This document shows, one piece after another, positions 9,798 to 50,376 of a stretch of 64,000 nt of DNA. Made by a program: the position numbers and the translations under genes. The notes beneath the pieces were generated by a model. The model saw only the letters and a list, made by a program, of their open reading frames with translations, made no database searches and was not told the origin of the DNA. Each line of letters opens with the position of its first letter. Positions within the stretch are counted from its first letter, which is position 1. Location of the stretch: the NCBI GenBank assembly GCA_964572825.1, contig CAZNGS010000009.1, forward strand, positions 8,413-72,412, given 5' to 3'. The stretch is from an uncultured candidatus Brocadiaceae bacterium. Lineage in GTDB: Bacteria; Planctomycetota; Brocadiia; SM23-32.

Positions 9798-11399
9798 TCA
9801 GTGGCCGTTGTCTGCCGGCTGTTCACGCAGAAACACCACCGACGGCGACTTGCCCGTATGGAGGACGGCGGGTTCCCGGCGGTGGACCTGAAACTGACGG
9901 CTCTGGCGCATGAATTCGGACGTTACCGGCCCCGCGCCATGTCTCACTGCTCTGAGGAAAACGGTCCTGACGGCTTCCTCATCGAGTGGGCCGAGCCTGG
10001 GGTGGACCAGCAGCCGGCAAACGGTTATGCCGGGTTCCGTCTCCGACAGGACCAACTGATAATCGCCCACGTCGCCTCCGAAGCTGCGCGGCAGAACTTC
10101 TTCCAGGACGCGGGCGGCATCCCGCCCGGAGAGCGTCAGTCCCTCCGTCGTCAGCCTGGCAAAACTCCACAGACCGCGAAGGTGGGTATGGAAACCCATA
10201 CGGTCCCAAGGGCATTCGCAACGCCTGCGCTCCACCACGCCCGCGTCACCCGTCTCCGCGTTGATCATAATCTTTGGGCTGGCCGGGGAAAGGGCTGTGA
10301 ACAGCAGGGGGCGCACGAACTTCTCTGTCCCGACTGCCCTGGAATGCGAGATCACGGCGAAACGGTGTTCGTAGACGTGCATGTCGTCGCTGCCCCTTGG
10401 CGCCAGACAGGCTTCGGCGGCTTCCCCCATCTCGGTGGCCCCAAACAGCGGCAGGCAGGCTCCTCCCGCGGCCTCGATGGTGCGTCGTTTCGCCTCGGTG
10501 ATCGGCTCGCCCGCCACCAGCAGAACGCAACCGTCCAGGTCAAGCCCTTGCCGAACGGCCCACGTGGCCAGCCGCGCGGCCGTCGAGGGATAAGTCACCA
10601 TCAGGGCCCCCGGACCCCGGCCGGCCACGCGGGCAAGCCATGCGGCCGGTCGCGAAGGACGTAGAGGCGAGGCGAATTCCGGTCGCGGCAGCGCCAGGCC
10701 GCCCCCCCGAGCCAGCAGCACCAGGCCCCACGCCCTGGCCATCGCCCCGCGCGCCGGTCCCGTTGGAGAGACGGGTACCTGACAGAACCACCTGCGGGGC
10801 ACTGCACCCACCCGGACAAGCCGCAGCAACCGGGACAGCGCCCACTCGGTGGGCGGGAGGTAGAGGGCAAATTCGGCGCCGACCAGGCCGTTTATCTCCA
10901 GGGACCGCCGGGCATGGTGACACTGCTCCCGGTAGTGGCTCGGACCGACTGCCACGCGCGTGGGAGCCCCCGTGCTGCCGCTGCTGACGTGCGGAAAACC
11001 CGGCCACTGGCACGGATTGTCAAACTGCTTCGGCTGGAACTGGAACAGGGCCGCACCGCGGCGGGCTGGTTCCCGGCCCTTCATCTCGTCGAGAGTTACG
11101 TAGAGCCCATCTCCGGCGAGTCGTTGCAGCGCGCCCTCGAGGCCCCGACTGCGCACGAGCACACGCAGGTCCTCATACGTGCAGCCCAGATGTCGGAACA
11201 GCGCCAGATAAGGACTGTCCGGATTGGCGAACACGGCTCGGGCGACCACCCGAAGGAAGCGTCTTCCACGCCGTTCGTTCAGGCGATGGATGGCTTCTCG
11301 GGCACGGCCCCCCTTGTATGGTTCCCGCGCGAACCGCAGAAGGCGCCGGCCGCCCCGGAGCAGAGACAGGCCGCGCCGCAGACAGGCTGAAGCGACCAT
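9798..11399 (-). CDS. PaaK / coenzyme F390 synthetase-like adenylate-forming enzyme (ANL superfamily)
   Basis: HVSSGSTGAPTRVAVGPSHY is a P-loop-like SSGTTG motif. LLVAGEPITEAKRR and ATEMGEA are also present. The length of about 530 aa fits the phenylacetate-CoA ligase family. Confidence 0.6.
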   Translation of the reverse strand: MVASACLRRGLSLLRGGRRLLRFAREPYKGGRAREAIHRLNERRGRRFLRVVARAVFANPDSPYLALFRHLGCTYEDLRVLVRSRGLEGALQRLAGDGLYVTLDEMKGREPARRGAALFQFQPKQFDNPCQWPGFPHVSSGSTGAPTRVAVGPSHYREQCHHARRSLEINGLVGAEFALYLPPTEWALSRLLRLVRVGAVPRRWFCQVPVSPTGPARGAMARAWGLVLLARGGGLALPRPEFASPLRPSRPAAWLARVAGRGPGALMVTYPSTAARLATWAVRQGLDLDGCVLLVAGEPITEAKRRTIEAAGGACLPLFGATEMGEAAEACLAPRGSDDMHVYEHRFAVISHSRAVGTEKFVRPLLFTALSPASPKIMINAETGDAGVVERRRCECPWDRMGFHTHLRGLWSFARLTTEGLTLSGRDAARVLEEVLPRSFGGDVGDYQLVLSETEPGITVCRLLVHPRLGPLDEEAVRTVFLRAVRHGAGPVTSEFMRQSRQFQVHRREPAVLHTGKSPSVVFLREQPADNGH

Positions 11400-11736
11400 C
11401 GACCCCCCGTCGCCGAATGGAAAAGCGCCGCCAGAACCGCCGGACTCCGAACAGGCGCGTTGCGAGCTTACCGTGCACTCACGGCACTGTCAATACGGTC
11501 GGCGCCGGCATCAGGGATGTCCCGGGGTGATGCTGACCGGCCCGGGCCGGATATCCCCGGGTTGCGGCGGATCGGGTGGATCAGCTGTCGGGTCTGGAAG
11601 GAGGGACGTGCTCAGGTCAGCATCATCATGTAGGAGTTTCGCTACCAGTTTGCTGCGGCGGGCACAGCCGATGCACGGGCGGACCTCCAGGCAAGCGATC
11701 CGCCCGGAGGGTTAAGTGAATTGAGGTAAATGCCTT

Positions 11737-11808
11737 CCGGCTGCCAAACAGCCGGCGCGGCGGGGACGCCGCGCCTACCCCTTGGGGTAGGTCCGGCGTC
11801 TCGCCGGA
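11737..11808. repeat. array of four contiguous perfect palindromic hairpins; structured RNA or a REP-like element
   Basis: CCGGCTG-ccaaa-CAGCCGG (11737-11755). CGCGGCG-ggga-CGCCGCG (11756-11773). CCTACCCC-tt-GGGGTAGG (11774-11791). TCCGGCG-tct-CGCCGGA (11792-11808). The four are directly abutting. Confidence 0.5.
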
Positions 11809-12092
11809 CCGGAGTTCGTACGATCTGGGGAGCCGGGCCTTGCCTTCTGTCCAGGTAGTTGAGCCAGCGTGCCCTCAGCGCGTCGGGTTTCGCAAACCGG
11901 AAAAGATTTATCTCGTATCGCTTAACAACTCCCCTTGAGGAATGTAACTCAACCGCTGCCGGGTGAGGATCGCCTTTTTTCGTTGCCACCCGGAGATCAT
12001 ATGTTCTTCAGAAGAGTGTCGGGCGCGCCACCTCGAGTGAACGGCCATCCGGGGGGCGCCGCGGAAAGCCGGTGCATGCATGGCCGGGGCGG

Positions 12093-13283
12093 TCAGGTGG
12101 TCGGCCGGGCAATCGGAGCGGCTATCTGGTCGAAGAAGGGCGTGGTGCGGCGTTCCACGCATTGGGCCGCGTAAAGGTACACGGCCGCCGACCAGGTCTG
12201 CCAGTCCTGCCCCTGCGGGGTGCCGTCCTGGGCCCGAAACCATTCGTTGAAACCGAACTCGACATCGGCGCTTCTGGAGGGACGAACCAGTTCGGTCAGG
12301 GCGGCGAGATTGCGCTCCGCCACGCGGTAACGCCGGGCACTCACGCAGGCCGCGACATAAAAACCGCATATGTAGGGCCATACCCCGCCGTTGTGGTACT
12401 CGCCCGGCCTGCCGTACTGCTCATAGCGCGGGCGCCAGTCCGGGTGCTCGGGCCGGATGTAGGGGAACAGGGCCGGTGGAAGCTCGAGGGCCAGGTCCCC
12501 GTTGCTTCGCAGCGCGGCGCATTCGTGTTCGACCCACGAGACGATGGATTGGGCCCGGGAGCGCGAGGCGATGCCCGAGAGAATGGCCAGGCTGTTGCCC
12601 AGCAGGTCGAATCGCTCGCTGCGGTAGAGCTTGTAGGACCACAGTGCGTAGTACGGCTTGTGCGCCAGCACGAGACCCTCATGGACGTGGGGATGCCTGC
12701 TCTCCGCTTCGACTGAGAAACGGTTCATGAGCTCCCGCAGCGTCCGGGCGCGCTCGTCGTGCCCATAGAGGCGCAGATACATGTGGACCAGGGCGTTCAC
12801 GTACAGGCCGTAGCCCAGCACCCATTGCTCGTCCCGCCAGTCACTGGTGGGCAGTTGAGCGACGATGACGCGGTCCTCGGGGCTCTGGTATTCCATCCAG
12901 GTCAGCGCGGCCCGGGCGGCCTCTTCCAGGAAGCTTTCCTCCCCGGTGGCGTTTCTGAACAGGGCCAGCCCCAGGAGGAAAAGCGGCGTAGTATCGCTGG
13001 CCCCTCTATTCTCCGGATCGTGGACGAGGGAAGGAATGTGTCCCCGCTGGCTCTGGTTGTTAGCCAGCGCCTGGAGGACCCGCCTCACCGTGTAGATGAG
13101 CCGCTCCTCCCCCGAGAGCAAGATGCCCGGCGTGGATATCATGATGTCGCGCGTATAGGGCTCGGGGTAGCCCCAGCCCGCGGTGCGAAAGAGGGAACGG
13201 TAAGGGCCCCGACGGTTGTGCTTCAGAACCTCCAGGGCCGCCTCCTTTGTCTCCGCCACGGCGCAGGCAAGTTTCCTGTCCAT
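12093..13283 (-). CDS. (alpha/alpha)6-barrel glycoside hydrolase (GH63 / GH100 / glycogen-debranching C-terminal-like)
   Basis: About 396 aa, with WGYPEPYTRD, SDTTPLFL, DWRDEQWVLGYGLYVNAL and GEYHNGGVWPY. These motifs are typical of six-hairpin glycosidases such as neutral invertase, mannosylglycerate hydrolase or GDE-C. Confidence 0.55.
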   Translation of the reverse strand: MDRKLACAVAETKEAALEVLKHNRRGPYRSLFRTAGWGYPEPYTRDIMISTPGILLSGEERLIYTVRRVLQALANNQSQRGHIPSLVHDPENRGASDTTPLFLLGLALFRNATGEESFLEEAARAALTWMEYQSPEDRVIVAQLPTSDWRDEQWVLGYGLYVNALVHMYLRLYGHDERARTLRELMNRFSVEAESRHPHVHEGLVLAHKPYYALWSYKLYRSERFDLLGNSLAILSGIASRSRAQSIVSWVEHECAALRSNGDLALELPPALFPYIRPEHPDWRPRYEQYGRPGEYHNGGVWPYICGFYVAACVSARRYRVAERNLAALTELVRPSRSADVEFGFNEWFRAQDGTPQGQDWQTWSAAVYLYAAQCVERRTTPFFDQIAAPIARPTT

Positions 13284-15104: not shown

Positions 15105-16538
15105 TCAGGTTTTGTAATCTTCTTTGCAAAGGTCGTGCCGTTTCATCTTGTCGTAGAGGGCCCTGGGGCTCAGGCCGGCCCGCTTCGCCGTCTGTCCTAC
15201 GCGCCCCCCGGTGGCCGCCAGCAGCCCCTCGATGTAGCCCTTTTCCAGGTCGGCCAGGAACCGCTCTCGGACGCGGCGCCACGGCATGCGGAGCCATTCC
15301 TCGGGCAGGTCACCGACGATCGGACCGCCGGGTGCAGAGCCTGGCTCGTCCCCCACTGGGCCAGCTCCACCCCGCACGGTTTCCGGCAGATCGGCCGGGC
15401 CGATCATGCCGCCGTCGCAGAGCAAGAGCGCCCGTTCGATGACGTTAATCAGTTCGCGCACGTTTCCCGGCCAGGAGTATTGTATCAGGGCATCGAGGGC
15501 CTGGTCCGTGATCCCTTCCGCCGCACAGCCCACGCGTGGCTGCAGGTAGTCCATGTAGCTCTCGACGAGCACGGGTATGTCCTCCCGGCGCTCCCGGAGG
15601 GGCGGAATGGTGAGCGTGACGACGCTGAGGCGATAGTAGAGGTCCCGTCTGAAGCGCCCTTCGCTGACCTCACTCTCCAGGTCGCGATTGCTGGCGGCCA
15701 TCAGTCGCACGTCCACCGGTATGGTTCTTTCGCCGCCTACGGGCTGGACTTGACGGTCCTGAAGCACGCGCAGCAGTTTGACCTGGACGTGGTAGGGCAA
15801 CTCGCCGATTTCGTCCAGGAACACCGTGCCCCGGTGAGCCAACTCAAACCAGCCCCGGCGAGTCCTGGCCGCCCCCGTAAAGGCTCCTCTCTCGTGGCCG
15901 AAAAGCTCGCTCTCCAGCAGCGACTCGGGCAGGGCTGCGCAGTTGATGGCGACGAACGGGCCCTCGGATCGCGGCCCCTCGCCATGAATGGCCCTGGCGA
16001 GCCGTTCCTTGCCCACGCCGGTCTCGCCCAGGATGAGCAGCGAGACATCGCTGCGCACCACTCGCCGTGCGAGCCCCATGAACACCTGCATGCAGGGGCT
16101 CTCCGAGACGAAGTCGGACAGGCGCGGCGTGGACATATCCCCATCGGCCAGCAGTGTGCTGCGGGCGGCCGCCGCCCGCCGCGCCAGCAGGGCCTGCAGA
16201 ACCTCGCCGAAGACCTCGGCCGACAGCCCTTCGTGGAGGACCGCCAGGCAGCCGGACGCCGTCAGGCAGGCCCGGTTGACCGGGTCGTCACTGGCCGAGA
16301 TGACGATCACGCCCGGGGGGTCCGGCAACTCTCCAAGGGCAGCGATCTTCTGCGCCAGTGGTCCGCGCACGGCGCCCTCGCTGATCACAAGCATGTCCGC
16401 CGTCTTGCGAACGACCCGGTCCCACAGGCCGCTCCCGGTGGCCTCGATTTCCAGCAGGATGTCCGGCTTGTTCAGCAGCCCGCGCAACTGCCGCCGGAGG
16501 GGTGCGGAACTGACGGCCAGAACTACCCGCGTCAGCAT
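15105..16538 (-). CDS. sigma-54-dependent transcriptional activator (NtrC family) with a degenerate N-terminal receiver-like domain
   Basis: AAA+ sigma-54 interaction motifs [14 protein letters not shown] and ESELFGHE are present. A C-terminal Fis-type HTH follows. The N-terminal domain lacks the acidic Asp-Asp pair and reads VVLAVSS. Confidence 0.8.
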
Positions 16539-16707
16539 TCGAGCATGCTCCCCCCAAGAGTCCCGATAAGTACTTTTACTGCCGATTTGACCGGAAGTCA
16601 AGATTCTGATTCCCTATCGACCAACGTTCCGGCGTCTCCGGGTTTTGTTCTTCGCAAAGCTTTCGTACAAAATCACTTGCACAGAATCAGCCCCTGGAAT
16701 GCGGCAA

Positions 16708-35248: not shown

Positions 35249-35465
35249 GCACTCTCCAATTCCTTTCAGGCACCCGCGCCGGCCGGACATTCAACTTCGA
35301 TCCGTCCAGTGTACCCGTTGCTGCGCGGCGGGCAACTGCCGGCCGCGGCGGCCCGAACGCGTCCCGAACACGCTGGCCGGCCAGTTCCTTGAGATTACTG
35401 CGTCGTCGACCCACGAGTCCGTCGCCGGCCACCAGAACATTACGTTCCGCAATTGTCCGTCCCTG

Positions 35466-35500
35466 TACTGTTTTGGGGACACTCAAAAAGGGCACCGGGA
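35466..35500 (-). terminator. candidate intrinsic terminator (hairpin plus T5) downstream of the nrdH-like gene
   Basis: The minus strand reads CCGGG-tcaccgt-CCCGG-tgccc-TTTTT, about 60 nt after the nrdH-like stop. Confidence 0.3.
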
Positions 35501-35562
35501 CGGTGACCCGGCAGATCACCGCCCCGGTTGACACGGTGGGGTTGATACCTGCCAACCCCGGC

Positions 35563-35835
35563 CTACGCCGTCAATCTCTGGCGAAGTTCGCTGCTGGGGG
35601 GGGCGTGGCCGTCCCAGCGGGCGACCACATGGTCGGTGTCCTTTTTGAGAAGAACGGAGGGGATATCGAACACGTCGAAGAAGTCCCCCTCGGCGGCCCC
35701 GTGCTCGGTCTCCATGTCCTGGAAGACCACGTCCACCCGGTCCTCCACCTCCCACTTGCTGAGGAAGTGGGAGAGCTTTCGCTTGGCGCTCTGGCAGAGT
35801 TTGCACTCCTGCTTGCCGTAGACTTCGATGATCAT
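35563..35835 (-). CDS. glutaredoxin-like / NrdH-like redoxin
   Basis: The 90 aa product has MIIEVYGKQECKLCQSAK, a CxxC redox motif. It lies immediately downstream of nrdD. Confidence 0.6.
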   Translation of the reverse strand: MIIEVYGKQECKLCQSAKRKLSHFLSKWEVEDRVDVVFQDMETEHGAAEGDFFDVFDIPSVLLKKDTDHVVARWDGHAPPSSELRQRLTA

Positions 35836-35872
35836 TTCTGCTACCTCGCGCTGACTGTGTTCCGTGTGTCGC

Positions 35873-46311: not shown

Positions 46312-47106
46312 ATGCTCATCATCGGCGAAAGAATCAACGCCACCCGCGGGCCCATCGCCCGCGCACTCAAAGAACGCAACGCGGAGAAGATCGCACACGA
46401 GGCCCGCGTCCAGGCCGAAGCCGGGGCCGACTTTATCGACGTGAACGGCGCCAGCGACCCCTCGCACGAGGCCGAGAACCTGCGGTGGGCCCTGGAGGTG
46501 GTGCAGGAGGCCGTGAACCTGCCGGTCTGCGTGGACTCCGCCAATCCGGACATCCTGCGGGAGGCCGTCGAGCTGGTCGAGTCCGAGCGAATGATGCTCA
46601 ACTCCGCTACGGCCGAGGACGGCAAGCTGCAGACGGTCATGGACATCGCCGCCGGCACGGGCGCTCTCGTGGTGGCCCTCGCCATGGACGACAGCGGAGC
46701 GCCGGACACTGCTGAGCGGCGCGTGTCCGTCGCCGCCCGCCTGATTGAGGCCGCCGAGGAAGCCGGCGTCCCCCGGGAACGGGTTTACGTGGACCCCTGC
46801 GTGCAGCCCATCGGCACGGACGCCACCCAGGGCATGGAGGTCATCTCGGCGGTGTTCCGCATCATGCAGAACTTCCCCGGGGTGCACACCACGTGCGGAT
46901 TGTCCAACATCAGTTTCGGCCTCCCCAACCGCAGCCTCATCAACCGCACCTACCTGTCCTGCCTGATCGTGGCCGGCCTGGACTCCGCCATCCTCGATCC
47001 CACGGAAGAAGGCATGAAGGAGGCGATATGCGTCGGGAAGGTTCTCGCCGGGCGCGACGAATTCTGCATGGACTACATCCGCGCCATGCGGGACAGGGAA
47101 CCGTAG
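46312..47106 (+). CDS. pterin-binding methyltransferase (methyltetrahydrofolate:corrinoid methyltransferase, AcsE/MtrH/MetH-domain family)
   Basis: MLIIGERINATRG...FIDVNGAS...GLSNISFGLP is the pterin-binding (DHPS-like) methyl-H4folate methyltransferase signature. Confidence 0.75.
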   Translation: MLIIGERINATRGPIARALKERNAEKIAHEARVQAEAGADFIDVNGASDPSHEAENLRWALEVVQEAVNLPVCVDSANPDILREAVELVESERMMLNSATAEDGKLQTVMDIAAGTGALVVALAMDDSGAPDTAERRVSVAARLIEAAEEAGVPRERVYVDPCVQPIGTDATQGMEVISAVFRIMQNFPGVHTTCGLSNISFGLPNRSLINRTYLSCLIVAGLDSAILDPTEEGMKEAICVGKVLAGRDEFCMDYIRAMRDREP

Positions 47107-47128
47107 CCCGCCGAAACGGCGGGGGGGA

Positions 47129-49435
47129 TCAGGACTCGGAGGAAGCCGCCTTTTCCCTGCCCGAGAGGTACCGGTCAATCGACGCGGCCGCGCGTTTGCC
47201 GGCGCCCATTGCCTGGATGACGGTGGCCGCGCCGGTGACGATGTCGCCCCCGGCGTAGACCCCCGGCAGGCTGGTCTGCCCCGTCACAACGTCCGCGTCG
47301 ACGGTGCCCCAATCGGTCACTTTCAGACCCGGCGTGGTCTGCGGGACGAGCGGGTGGGGCCGGTTGCCGTAAGCGACGATCACCATGTCCACCGAGAACT
47401 CCATCTCCGAGCCCTGGATGGGGATGGGTCGCCGGCGCCCGTCCTCGCCCGGCTCACCCAGCTCCATGCGGACACAGCGCAGCCCGCGAACCCATCCCTT
47501 CTCGTCCCCGAGCACCTCGACGGCGTTGTGCAGCCACATGAAGCGGATGCCTTCCTCTCTGCCGTGCTCCAGTTCCGCGTCCCGTGCCGGCGATTCTTCC
47601 ACGCTGCGGCGGTAGACGATGTGCACCTCTTTTGCTCCCAGCCGCAGCGCCGTCCTCGCGGAATCCATGGCCACGTTGCCGCCGCCCAGCACGGCTACCC
47701 GGTCCCTGACCATCACCGGCGTGGCATAGTCGGGCCGGTAGCCGCGCATCAGGTTGACCCGCGTGAGGTACTCGTTGGCGCTCAGGACGCCGTTGAGGTT
47801 TTCCCCCGGTATGTCGCCGAAGATGGGCGTGCCCGCGCCGGAACCGATGAAGACGGCCTCGAAGCCCTCCTCGAACAGGTCCTCGACCGCGGCCGTCTTG
47901 CCCACCACGAAGTTGCAGACGATCTCAACGCCCATCGAGCCCACATACTCCACTTCCTGGGCCACCACTTCCTTGGGAAGCCTGAAGGCCGGTATGCCGT
48001 AGAGCAGCACCCCGCCGGGCTCGTGGAGGGCCTCGAAAACGGTGGGCGCGTATCCCTTCCTGCCCAGTTCGCCGGCGGCCGTCAGTCCCGCCGGGCCGGA
48101 GCCGACCACGGCGACCCGACCCTTCGCGTCCGCCGCGACCGAGGGCGGCTGGACCAATCCCTCCTCCCGCTCGTAATCGGCGGCAAATCGCTCCAGGTTG
48201 CCGATCGCAACCGATTCTCCCCGGCGGCCCAGCACGCACAGCCCCTCGCACTGGTCCTCCTGGGGACAGACGCGGCCGCATATGGCGGGCAGGGAGTTGT
48301 CCTCCTTCAGCACCCGGGCCGCGCCCGGGAAGTCCTCCTCCGCGATGCGTTGGATGAAGCCCGGGATGTCGATGCCCACCGGGCAGCCCTCGACGCACTG
48401 GGGGTCCCTGCATTGCAGGCAGCGCCGGGCCTCCACGACGGCCTGCTCGGGACGCAGGCCCAGGGGAACCTCCCCGAAATTGCGCACCCGCACCGCGACG
48501 GGCTGCTCGGGCATGGGCTGGCGCGGTATCTGGACGGGCTTCTCTGCGGAACGGCCGGCCTCCAGCAGGGCCTCCTGGAGCCGCGTGTGCTCCAGGTCGC
48601 AGCCGTGCGCGGGCTGGTATTGGGGCAGGTTCCGCTTGCGGAAATCGTCATCGTACTGGCTCAGACGGCGTGCCAGCTCCTGGAAGTCCACCCGGTGTCC
48701 GTCGAACTCCGGCCCGTCCACGCAGGCAAATTTGGTCTCCCCGCCCACTGTCACCCGGCAGCCGCCGCACATACCCGTGCCATCCACCATGATGGGGTTG
48801 AGGCTCACGATCGTCCTCACGCCGAACGGGCGCGTTACCCCGCTGATGGCGGCCATCATGGGGACGGGCCCCACGGCATAAACGGCGTCGATCTGCTCCT
48901 CGGATTCCAGCATCCCCTGCAGGAGGTCCGTGGGGAACCCGTGGTAACCGGCCGAGCCGTCGTCGGTGGCGATTTCCAGTTCGTCGCAGGTTCGGTCCAT
49001 CTCATCGCGCAGGATGAGCAGCTCCTCGGTGCGGGCGCTGATGATCCCGCTCAGACGATCGGCCCGGCGGGCCAGGGCGCTCGCGATCGGCCAGATGAGG
49101 GCGATTCCCACTCCGCCGCCCACCGCCACGGCGTGCGTGGCGGGCAGTATCTCCGTGGGCTGCCCCAGCGGGCCCGCCACGTCCGGGACCAGGTCTCCGG
49201 GCTCCATGGCGGCAAGCTGGCGGGTGCTGGCGCCGACGGCCTGGAAGATGATGGTGATGGAGAGCGCACGCGGGTCGGCCTGGGCCACGGTCAGAGGCAC
49301 CCGCTCGCCCCGTTCGGTGGGCCGCACGACCACGAACTGCCCCACCTGCCGGGCAACCGCGATGCGGGGGGCGTGGATCGTCATCCGGTAAATATCGGGA
49401 GCCAGCTCTTCTTTGCTGAGTATCTCGAATCTCAT
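47129..49435 (-). CDS. fused ferredoxin-NADP+ reductase-like domain (NfnA/SudB/PyrK type, FAD + 2Fe-2S) and glutamate-synthase-small-chain-like domain (NfnB/SudA/GltD type)
   Basis: An N-terminal PyrK-like domain (MRFEILSKEEL...GTGMCGGCRV...FACVDGPEF) is fused in frame to a GltD-like domain. That domain has two 4Fe-4S motifs (CLQCRDPQCVEGCP, CGRVCPQEDQCEGLC) and two dinucleotide folds (VAVVGSGPAGLTAAGEL, VAVLGGGNVAMD). The start ATG at 49435 overlaps the galU stop as ATGA. Confidence 0.75.
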   Translation of the reverse strand: MRFEILSKEELAPDIYRMTIHAPRIAVARQVGQFVVVRPTERGERVPLTVAQADPRALSITIIFQAVGASTRQLAAMEPGDLVPDVAGPLGQPTEILPATHAVAVGGGVGIALIWPIASALARRADRLSGIISARTEELLILRDEMDRTCDELEIATDDGSAGYHGFPTDLLQGMLESEEQIDAVYAVGPVPMMAAISGVTRPFGVRTIVSLNPIMVDGTGMCGGCRVTVGGETKFACVDGPEFDGHRVDFQELARRLSQYDDDFRKRNLPQYQPAHGCDLEHTRLQEALLEAGRSAEKPVQIPRQPMPEQPVAVRVRNFGEVPLGLRPEQAVVEARRCLQCRDPQCVEGCPVGIDIPGFIQRIAEEDFPGAARVLKEDNSLPAICGRVCPQEDQCEGLCVLGRRGESVAIGNLERFAADYEREEGLVQPPSVAADAKGRVAVVGSGPAGLTAAGELGRKGYAPTVFEALHEPGGVLLYGIPAFRLPKEVVAQEVEYVGSMGVEIVCNFVVGKTAAVEDLFEEGFEAVFIGSGAGTPIFGDIPGENLNGVLSANEYLTRVNLMRGYRPDYATPVMVRDRVAVLGGGNVAMDSARTALRLGAKEVHIVYRRSVEESPARDAELEHGREEGIRFMWLHNAVEVLGDEKGWVRGLRCVRMELGEPGEDGRRRPIPIQGSEMEFSVDMVIVAYGNRPHPLVPQTTPGLKVTDWGTVDADVVTGQTSLPGVYAGGDIVTGAATVIQAMGAGKRAAASIDRYLSGREKAASSES

Positions 49436-50376
49436 GGGCTGCCGAACATGTTGGAGAGCTCGGACCACCATTGCTGTGCCTGCGACCGCAGAGCGCCGGC
49501 CAGGGTCAGCGCCAACTGCGCCTCCAGCATCCCCGCCGGAGTCCCCACGTCGAACCTGGCCCCATCCACCACCAGGCCCCGGTAGGGTTCGGCCTCCGCC
49601 AACAGGTCCTGGGCCATGGTGAGCTGGAACTCGCCCCGCTGCCGTCGTCCCTCCCGGATCATGCGTTCCAGGATGTCGAAAATGCCCGGCGTGAACACGT
49701 GCATGCCGAAGTGGGTCAGGTAGCGCCCGTCCCCCAGCCCGGGGACCCGGCACCGTTCCCTGGCCACCTGGACGCTGGGTTTCTCGATGAACCCCTCCAC
49801 CTCTATCAAACTCGGAATGGCGTCCGCCGGACGGCCCCGTGCGACCCCGAAACGGCCCACCGCTCCCTCGGGCGAGGGCGTCAATGCGGTGAGACTGGCC
49901 CCTTCGAAAACGGTCACAAGCTGTCCAGCGCAGGGCCGCTCCGTACGGCTGATGTAGACGTGGTCGCCCAGCAACGCCAGGAAGGGCTCGTCCCCCACCC
50001 AGTCGCGTGCGCACCAGATGGCGTGTCCCAGCCCTTGCTGTTCCTCCTGGGGGACGAAACTCAGACGCTCGCCCATCTCCTGCAGCCTGTCCGACCACTG
50101 GAAGGCCCATTTCTTGCCTTCGTAGTGGGGGCGCGCGTGCTCGGGCATCGCTCTAAAGTAGCGGCGGAACTCCTCGCGCGCGCCGGGCTGGCACACAATG
50201 CAGACCTCCTCCACCCCGGCCGCCAGCGCCTCCTCCACGCCCATTTGCACCACGGGCTTGGTATACCCGTCGCGGTCCACCAGCGGAAAAAGCTCTTTGC
50301 GCACGCAGGAACTGGCCGGGTACTGGCGCGTGCCCATGCCGGCGGCCGGGATTACGGCCTTCTGCACCATTGTCAT
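49432..50376 (-). CDS. galU: UTP--glucose-1-phosphate uridylyltransferase
   Basis: MTMVQKAVIPAAGMGTRQYPAS...KELFPLVD is the GalU nucleotidyltransferase signature. The start is at the ATG 50376. Confidence 0.85.
   Translation of the reverse strand: MTMVQKAVIPAAGMGTRQYPASSCVRKELFPLVDRDGYTKPVVQMGVEEALAAGVEEVCIVCQPGAREEFRRYFRAMPEHARPHYEGKKWAFQWSDRLQEMGERLSFVPQEEQQGLGHAIWCARDWVGDEPFLALLGDHVYISRTERPCAGQLVTVFEGASLTALTPSPEGAVGRFGVARGRPADAIPSLIEVEGFIEKPSVQVARERCRVPGLGDGRYLTHFGMHVFTPGIFDILERMIREGRRQRGEFQLTMAQDLLAEAEPYRGLVVDGARFDVGTPAGMLEAQLALTLAGALRSQAQQWWSELSNMFGSP

Follow-up and report, generated by a model that had tools for sequence, protein, structure and literature searches.

REP sequences are defined as palindromes of 20-50 nt that follow a GTAG tag, and they are often paired as a REP and an inverted REP (iREP) (PMC8266576; PMC3733652). 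Di Nocera et al. name pairs whose GTAG ends face inward TT dimers, and in the GTAG-19 TT dimers of Opitutus terrae the two partners lie 1-2 bp apart (PMC3733652). REPs between same-strand genes are usually located close to the stop codon of the upstream gene (PMC3733652). A RAYT gene placed between its cognate REPs forms a REPtron, by which REP/RAYT systems are defined (PMC8266576). GTAG REPs have already been described in the PVC superphylum (PMC3733652), where REP systems have been noted and little studied.

The locus described here lies in a 64-kb stretch of DNA, which in its whole length is referred to as the window. We estimate a probability of roughly 85% that the segment 11754-11811 represents a single GTAG-type REP dimer, i.e. 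a REP and an iREP arranged as a TT heterodimer, or a minimal BIME/REPIN-like doublet. The coordinates of the features discussed are collected in Table 1.

Table 1. Features in and around the island that holds the putative REP dimer (coordinates of the window; H1-H4, the four abutting hairpins).
Feature	Position	Strand	Form and remarks
Downstream gene	9798..11399	minus	533-aa protein, no Pfam family
Non-coding island	11400..12092 (693 bp)		between two minus-strand genes
Promoter-like motif (putative)	11465..11493	minus	TTGACA-17 nt-TAAGCT; upstream of the 533-aa gene; read by eye
14-bp palindrome	11537-11550		CCGGCCCGGGCCGG; nested in CCCGGGG...CCCCGGG, 11521..11561
Inverted repeat (30 nt, imperfect), left arm	11711..11740		AT-rich
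H1	11737-11755		CCGGCTG-CCAAA-CAGCCGG; loop 5 nt; adjoins unit A
Putative REP unit A (H2)	11754..11778	minus	GTAGG-CGCGGCG-TCCC-CGCCGCG-CC; inverted-REP half
H2	11756-11773		CGCGGCG/CGCCGCG; loop 4 nt; extends to 9-bp arms at 11754-11775
H3	11774-11791		CCTACCCC/GGGGTAGG; loop 2 nt
Putative REP unit B (H4)	11787..11810	plus	GTAGG-TCCGGCG-TCT-CGCCGGA-CC
H4	11792-11808		TCCGGCG/CGCCGGA; loop 3 nt; extends to 9-bp arms at 11790-11810
Inverted repeat (30 nt, imperfect), right arm	11897..11926		AT-rich
Stem-loop	11959-11965 / 11987-11993		CCGGGTG/CACCCGG; 21-nt loop
Upstream gene	12093..13283	minus	GH100/GDE_C-type glycoside hydrolase

The hairpins are situated in a gene gap that a first-pass annotation, made from the sequence alone, had called by far the longest non-coding stretch of the window. 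It is indeed the longest, but the margin had been overstated: in a crude gene model of the window, the 693 bp of the island are followed by gaps of 582 and 506 bp. The ORFs of the island have a GC3 of 0.60-0.71, compared with 0.75-0.89 for the genes of the window, and show no codon bias like theirs. None of the 10 island ORFs was present in a collection of 15 billion proteins, and a 115-aa ORF had no homologue even at E ≤ 10. By these measures the island is non-coding. No tRNA or tmRNA was detected by ARAGORN. The AT-rich patch that had been pointed out is present, but it is mild (~58% GC vs. ~65%), and "unusually" AT-rich was too strong a description.

Upstream of the island, the GH100 gene is the last one of a conserved PIG-L - GT4 - GH100 block, which comes after a sigma-54 activator gene. 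The named homologues of the GH100 protein suggest that the genome is probably one of the Planctomycetota, and sulfatase genes are also found in the window. Among the GH100 relatives, identity does not exceed 79% and another gene lies downstream of GH100; in those with 71-73% identity, rnc (RNase III, ~710 bp) follows directly. A decayed RNase III gene was considered as the origin of island sequence and rejected, because tblastn with the proteins of two relatives gave no match in the island. As rnc directly follows GH100 in the relatives and no remnant of it is seen here, the island is located at a synteny break, and no region like it is present in relatives that share the GH100 operon. On the other side, the 533-aa protein bears only a faint resemblance to phenylacetate-CoA ligase, and its closest homologues (46-50% identical) occur in unrelated gene contexts. 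A promoter-like motif in front of its gene (Table 1) may be a promoter of this gene; the motif falls under the threshold of the scanner, which reported 0 promoter-like sites.

Four perfect inverted repeats had been described as directly abutting each other, and all of them were recovered where the first-pass annotation had placed them; with the extension of H4, the block spans 11737-11810. Perfect hairpins (stem ≥7, loop 2-8) are not in excess in the window as a whole, where 51 were counted vs. 46 ± 7 in simulated second-order Markov sequences. Four such hairpins within 80 bp were obtained in only 1 of 300 simulations of this kind, which supports the earlier statement that so dense a run exceeds chance. 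Read on the minus strand, the 78-nt block forms the four hairpins in a very stable fold (-56.9 kcal/mol, z = -5.5). Alternatively, H2, H3 and H4 can pair as a single hairpin with 17-nt arms that are 88% complementary.

Both REP units share the same form, in which GTAGG is followed by a GC stem of 7 bp with a 3-4-nt loop and by CC. They have opposite orientations, with the GTAG ends pointing inward and 8 nt between the two GTAGG tags, and since they differ in their stems the pair is a heterodimer. The facing GTAG(G) ends of the two units are complementary, and it is for this reason that H3 exists. In an alignment of 11 dimers, the CCTACC and GGTAGG blocks are invariant and the spacer between them varies (CCTT, CAGGT, GGTGT, GATGT), so H3 is weaker in the other copies. 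H1 lies outside the conserved repeat, as other loci resemble the window only from 11754 to 11811-11814, and no second copy of H1 was found in the window. Like the other palindromes of the island, H1 is local sequence that does not belong to the REP repeat. The hairpins had previously been treated as four like units, which has to be revised: only H2 and H4 are REP units, H3 results from the way these two are arranged, and H1 is an unrelated local stem-loop. The extragenic position of the dimer between same-strand genes is a common setting for REPs (PMC3733652). Against the REP reading, the stop codon of the upstream gene is ~280 nt away, farther than is usual for REPs between same-strand genes.

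Two of these other palindromes had been singled out before. The 14-bp palindrome exists and is nested as described, but its coordinates were one base off (11536-11549 had been given); at 11521-11561, a 20-nt repeat with 75% complementarity encloses CCGGCCCGGGCCGG. This larger palindrome had no match in the other REP-bearing loci and is unrelated to the REP family. The CCGGGTG...CACCCGG stem-loop was also found, at 11959-11993. Its loop contains a weak terminator-like site on the plus strand (11961-11985), in which GGGTGAGGATCGCCT is followed by TTTTTT; with one such site vs. 1.1 expected, this is no evidence of function. Generic sites composed of GTAG and a hairpin numbered 9 in the window, compared with 4.2 ± 1.8 expected, which is a weak signal from sites that lie mostly in coding sequence.

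Copies of the repeat were sought in other genomes. The unit pattern can be written as GTAGGNSSGGCG-N3-4-CGCCSSNCC, and JGI metagenome contigs were scanned with GGGTAGGNSSGGCG-N3-4-CGCCSSNCC, which fits units A and B alike. This degenerate single-unit pattern was found at no fewer than 120 loci in these contigs. Among the matches listed, 64 of 121 distinct sites were complementary at all three free stem positions, vs. 1 in 16 by chance, and about half of these listed matches are true hairpins. The loop of unit B, TCT, was the commonest one (21/64 among the matches listed). Stems of different sequence, each with its matching partner, were present (TCCGGCG, CGCGGCG, GCGGGCG, ACGGGCG, GGCGGCG and TCCGCCG), and the stem positions co-vary across the copies of the family.

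The similarity extends to the complete dimer. The exact 26-mer of unit B, GGGTAGGTCCGGCGTCTCGCCGGACC, was found in contigs L047, L082 (twice), L112 and L133 (four times each) and L114, and an identical or near-identical unit A in L133/L112, L082, L044, L036, L047 and L072. Unit A stands directly next to unit B there, inverted as in the window. Taken as a whole, the dimer (57-58 nt) is present with 91-93% identity in L082 (two copies) and in L112/L133 (6-7 copies), and L072 and L117 have variants of it. When the window was compared with those contigs by blastn, the sole similarity was 11754-11811/14 (57-62 nt, 91-93%), and no genes were shared. The 11 aligned dimers have a mean column identity of 85%, and their flanks diverge at once. 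A covariance model of the dimer, built from this alignment, matched L068, L031, L121, L116, L099, L044, L036 and L064 among the contigs outside its building set. Identical units or dimers are found at unrelated flanks in L047, L082, L112/L133, L114, L044 and L036, and variants in L031, L068, L072, L099, L116, L117 and L121. The REP dimer is a dispersed repeat in these other, metagenomic genomes. In L133/L112 it is reiterated in tandem arrays with a spacing of ~66-69 nt, and L082 has a 146-bp duplication that holds the dimer; the window has a single pair without tandem reiteration.

Within the 64-kb window, neither an unfiltered search with the covariance model nor a fuzzy family pattern detected a second dimer or any other unit of the family. 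Likewise, a search of the window for each hairpin with up to 3 mismatches and a blastn comparison of the island with the window returned one locus only. A single copy per 64 kb counts against the REP reading, as REP-rich genomes would show several. The 18-mer of H3 gave 15 matches in the GTDB representative genomes, a set that, like the JGI contigs, does not contain the source genome; this is about the chance level, and none of the matches had the neighbouring units. No match to the island was obtained in plasmids or phages. The unit sequences TCCGGCG-TCT and CGCGGCG-TCCC were not found in the text and supplements of PMC3733652 nor in the other literature searched.

A link to a transposase was provided by contig L133, in which positions 292-768 encode a 158-aa protein; L112, from a second sample, is identical. 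The protein scored 96.7 bits on NF047646, the NCBIfam equivalog "REP-associated tyrosine transposase" (cut-off 80), and also matched Pfam Y1_Tnp. Its sole relative in the PDB was E. coli TnpA-REP (4ER8), and in the alignment of the two proteins HVH and RYVWENP match the HUH and the catalytic-tyrosine motifs, respectively. Three dimers are situated upstream of this RAYT gene and three to four downstream, and the L133/L112 locus is a REPtron. At three other loci with a different stem variant, a weak RAYT-like match was seen ~100 nt from the unit. L034 was examined as a second REPtron and rejected, as the gene between its REP arrays encodes an ABC ATPase and not a RAYT. No RAYT gene was found in the 64-kb window.

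According to published biochemistry, a HUH/tyrosine enzyme would recognise, cut and rejoin the single-stranded hairpin with its 5' GTAG. As the enzyme recognises the hairpin together with GTAG, the dimer would be a non-autonomous mobile element, mobilised in trans and copied by a RAYT encoded elsewhere in the genome or in an ancestor. Such a trans-acting RAYT would spread doublets of REP and iREP (PMC8266576; PMC3116915), and the dimer in the island would have been mobilised in this way. At the RNA level, minus-strand read-through from the GH100 operon would form a very stable RNA with four hairpins, which might perhaps shield the transcript at its 3' end or impede read-through to the gene that follows, effects known from REPs of other bacteria. 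The distance of ~280 nt from the stop codon and the missing U-tract speak against such a side-role.

The stability of the minus-strand fold, the location of the block between two same-strand genes, and the alternative pairing of H2-H4, which resembles the alternatives of an attenuator, would also suit a structured RNA that evolved in place, be it a multi-hairpin terminator of the GH100 operon, an attenuator or leader of the 533-aa gene, or an sRNA. Such a locus-specific origin is largely refuted by the dispersed copies, given that the same sequence stands beside unrelated genes, and around a transposase gene, in other contigs. Since the dimer is found beside unrelated genes elsewhere, it is not tied to the GH100 operon, and the absence of such a region from the same operon in relatives points the same way. 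A search of 10800-12800 against Rfam (E ≤ 1), one of the checks proposed earlier, brought no family to its gathering threshold; the best match was ncS025, with 23.9 bits vs. 46 (E = 0.17). On the minus strand the hairpins are not followed by a U-tract, and the sole terminator-like site is on the plus strand and occurs at chance frequency, which leaves no canonical terminator on the strand of the flanking genes. A locus-specific RNA is regarded as very improbable. Of the options offered in the first-pass annotation, a REP/BIME-like cluster is the one that is supported, as the dimer recurs and flanks a RAYT gene elsewhere. Even less credit is given to the idea that the palindromes are double-stranded DNA sites for a protein, for instance upstream activating sites of the sigma-54 enhancer-binding protein encoded in the same cluster (15105-16601). 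A sigma-54-like -24/-12 motif does overlie H1 (TGGCAG-N5-AGGCAT, minus strand, 11746-11731), but its -12 element is without TTGC, and in its relaxed form the motif was counted 4 times in the window vs. 2.9 expected, a chance frequency. Furthermore, the three palindromes differ in sequence and adjoin the putative -24 element, unlike known activator sites, and the dimer is found in unrelated contexts.

The REP-dimer reading accounts for the core of the block; it explains neither H1, nor the 30-nt inverted repeat around it, nor the contig breaks at 11739 and 11897. The two arms of the inverted repeat are 156 nt apart, with 22 of 30 positions complementary (73%), and between them lie H1, the dimer and a further 86 nt. 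Complementarity as high as this was reached in 3 of 200 simulated islands, and the arms close a predicted single-stranded DNA fold (z = -4.2). Logan contigs (k = 31) of the source samples end at 11739 in one sample and at exactly 11897 in two. Such breaks, 30 nt inside 11710 and 11926, are expected of k = 31 de Bruijn unitigs if a repeat with those ends is multi-copy. Together with a precedent from Anabaena variabilis and Halothiobacillus neapolitanus, where REP dimers are inserted in long palindromes rich in AT (PMC3733652), these observations raise the possibility, which we entertain tentatively, that the unit is larger than the dimer: a composite of ~217 bp (11710-11926), MITE-like or a dimer in a long palindrome, that is multi-copy in the source genome. 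Several results go against it. Within the window, neither the arms nor 11812-11896 occur a second time, the arm consensus had 0 matches in JGI metagenomes and viral contigs, the island had none in plasmids and phages, and the other dimer copies are without such enclosing arms. By eye, no target-site duplication flanks 11711 and 11926, and the contig breaks could also come from strain polymorphism or poor coverage. The composite is compatible with the REP-dimer reading of the core. It is rather unlikely, though conceivable, that the multiplying unit is a ~217-bp REPIN/MITE hybrid. Such a hybrid would come from a REP/RAYT family (GTAGG-NSSGGCG-TCT-CGCCSSN-CC) that is common among GC-rich environmental bacteria.

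Most of the hairpin run is an ordinary selfish repeat rather than a novel RNA or regulatory device. Since neither a novel RNA nor a regulator is needed to explain the cluster, it should be masked as a repeat in annotation. The locus adds a sequence-defined GTAG-REP dimer and a cognate RAYT locus from uncultured, probably PVC-group, bacteria, and the L133 REPtron provides a concrete enzyme/substrate pair for studying how RAYTs handle short perfect palindromes. The contig breaks that coincide with the enclosing inverted repeat suggest that such elements fragment metagenome assemblies, and if confirmed, this coincidence of breaks and arms would be a sign of REP mobility in composite form.

Among the known systems, MITEs share with the island element the small size, the lack of coding sequence, the high degree of structure and the inverted-repeat boundaries, which are putative in the island. 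They differ in that no target-site duplication, second copy or parent insertion sequence was found here, and it is the REP dimer inside, rather than the arms, that is dispersed and conserved. Closer in architecture are GTAG-15 of Anabaena variabilis and CGTC-1 of Halothiobacillus neapolitanus (PMC3733652), where a dimer likewise lies within a long AT-rich inverted repeat; in the present case, however, the arms are not adjacent to the dimer, being separated from it by gaps of 13 nt (H1) and 86 nt, and they are seen at one locus only. The BIMEs of E. coli (REP y/z) also combine a REP and an iREP of two types, and the pair is repeated in tandem in the L133 arrays. E. coli TnpA-REP (4ER8) is homologous to the L133 RAYT. 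E. coli REPs have a longer, bulged stem that is required by the enzyme, whereas the units described here are short and perfect, and the long linker with host-factor sites of the BIMEs is absent. Pseudomonas REPINs are roughly 100 nt or more. In REPIN-RAYT systems (Bertels & Rainey 2011, PMC3116915), as at this locus, a doublet of inverted REPs can fold as one hairpin; unlike in those systems, the spacer here is 2-6 nt, the doublet measures ~58 nt and the RAYT is found in a different metagenomic organism. Short perfect palindromes like ours are known from the "group 3" REPs of Stenotrophomonas and Marinomonas (PMC8266576), and L133/L112 resembles the REPtrons of Corneloup et al. (2021, PMC8266576), with a single-gene cognate RAYT between the same REPs. 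The closest likeness is to the GTAG REP TT dimers (PMC3733652). The window deviates from these in having one copy in 64 kb, ~280 nt from the end of the upstream gene, and shares with them an unpaired GTAG(G) tag, a perfect stem of 6-9 bp with a short loop, and an inverted heterodimer with GTAG inside, a very short spacer and an extragenic position between same-strand genes.

The island downstream of the GH100-type glycoside hydrolase gene was compared with segments of two GH100 relatives (L022 and L024), in which the gene order is PIG-L - GT4 - GH100 - RNase III - Mla genes. In the window, GH100 is followed by the island and then by a set of unrelated genes. No remnant of rnc was found in the island (11400-12092).

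When the source samples were assembled independently in Logan, the contigs stopped where the two arms of the 30-nt inverted repeat enclosing the hairpin block have their inner ends, and in two samples (contigs L001 and L002) the break falls at the identical base. The 157 nt between the breaks at 11739 and 11897 are absent from the Logan contigs on both sides.

The family of the 533-aa protein encoded on the other side of the island has 166 or more members, all similar in length, and the genomic contexts of its homologues are varied. Its similarity to PaaK is faint, and just one homologue among the matches listed carries a precomputed Pfam domain. About 60 nt upstream of the ATG lies a promoter-like site, the spacer of which holds a CCGTG...CACGG palindrome.

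Two further GTAG-tagged hairpins were observed in the window. One is contained in its second-longest gap (35291-35872). The other is in the 22-bp gap between the convergent ORFs 46312..47106 (+) and 47129..50110 (-), the former of which uses the TAG of this GTAG as its stop codon; this hairpin may represent a lone REP from a different family, or else simply a bidirectional terminator.

Coordinates of the features and loci (window positions unless a contig is named)
Feature	Position	Strand	Remark
Segment of L022 set against the island	L022:7297-8013		
Segment of L024 set against the island	L024:7175-7882		
End of Logan contig L001	11897		
End of Logan contig L002	11897		
Start of Logan contig L003	11739		
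533-aa protein gene	9798-11399	-	
Promoter-like TTGACA-17 nt-TAAGCT	11465-11493	-	scores under the scanner's threshold
GTAGGCC then hairpin GGGGTTGG...CCAACCCC	35538-35570	-	
GTAG + perfect hairpin CCCGCCG-AAA-CGGCGGG	47103-47125	+	
REPtron, Ga0315291_10003105 (L133)	L133:1-1060		
REPtron, Ga0315289_10005267 (L112)			

The 18-mer of hairpin 3, CCTACCCCTTGGGGTAGG, was also located in GTDB genomes (L004:1619, L005:4256, L007:2346, L010:621 and L011:252), all low-GC MAGs: one Zixibacteria genome with two sites, plus Ignavibacteriaceae and Leptospirales. The five sites share a context of roughly GG(T)(G)GCCTACCCCTTGGGGTAGGTTT and look like a repeat family of their own.

REP units were observed in metagenome contigs. 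At L082:6590-6880, the REP dimer is borne on a 146-bp tandem duplication with convergent ORFs on either side. At L034:4640-6690, 12 GTAGG-hairpin units of several stem types form arrays flanking an ABC-transporter ATPase gene, and no RAYT (REP-associated tyrosine transposase) was found between these arrays. Contigs L133 and L112 carry a complete REPtron, identical between two samples, in which a 158-aa RAYT gene has arrays of A/B dimers on both sides, spaced at ~66-69 nt.
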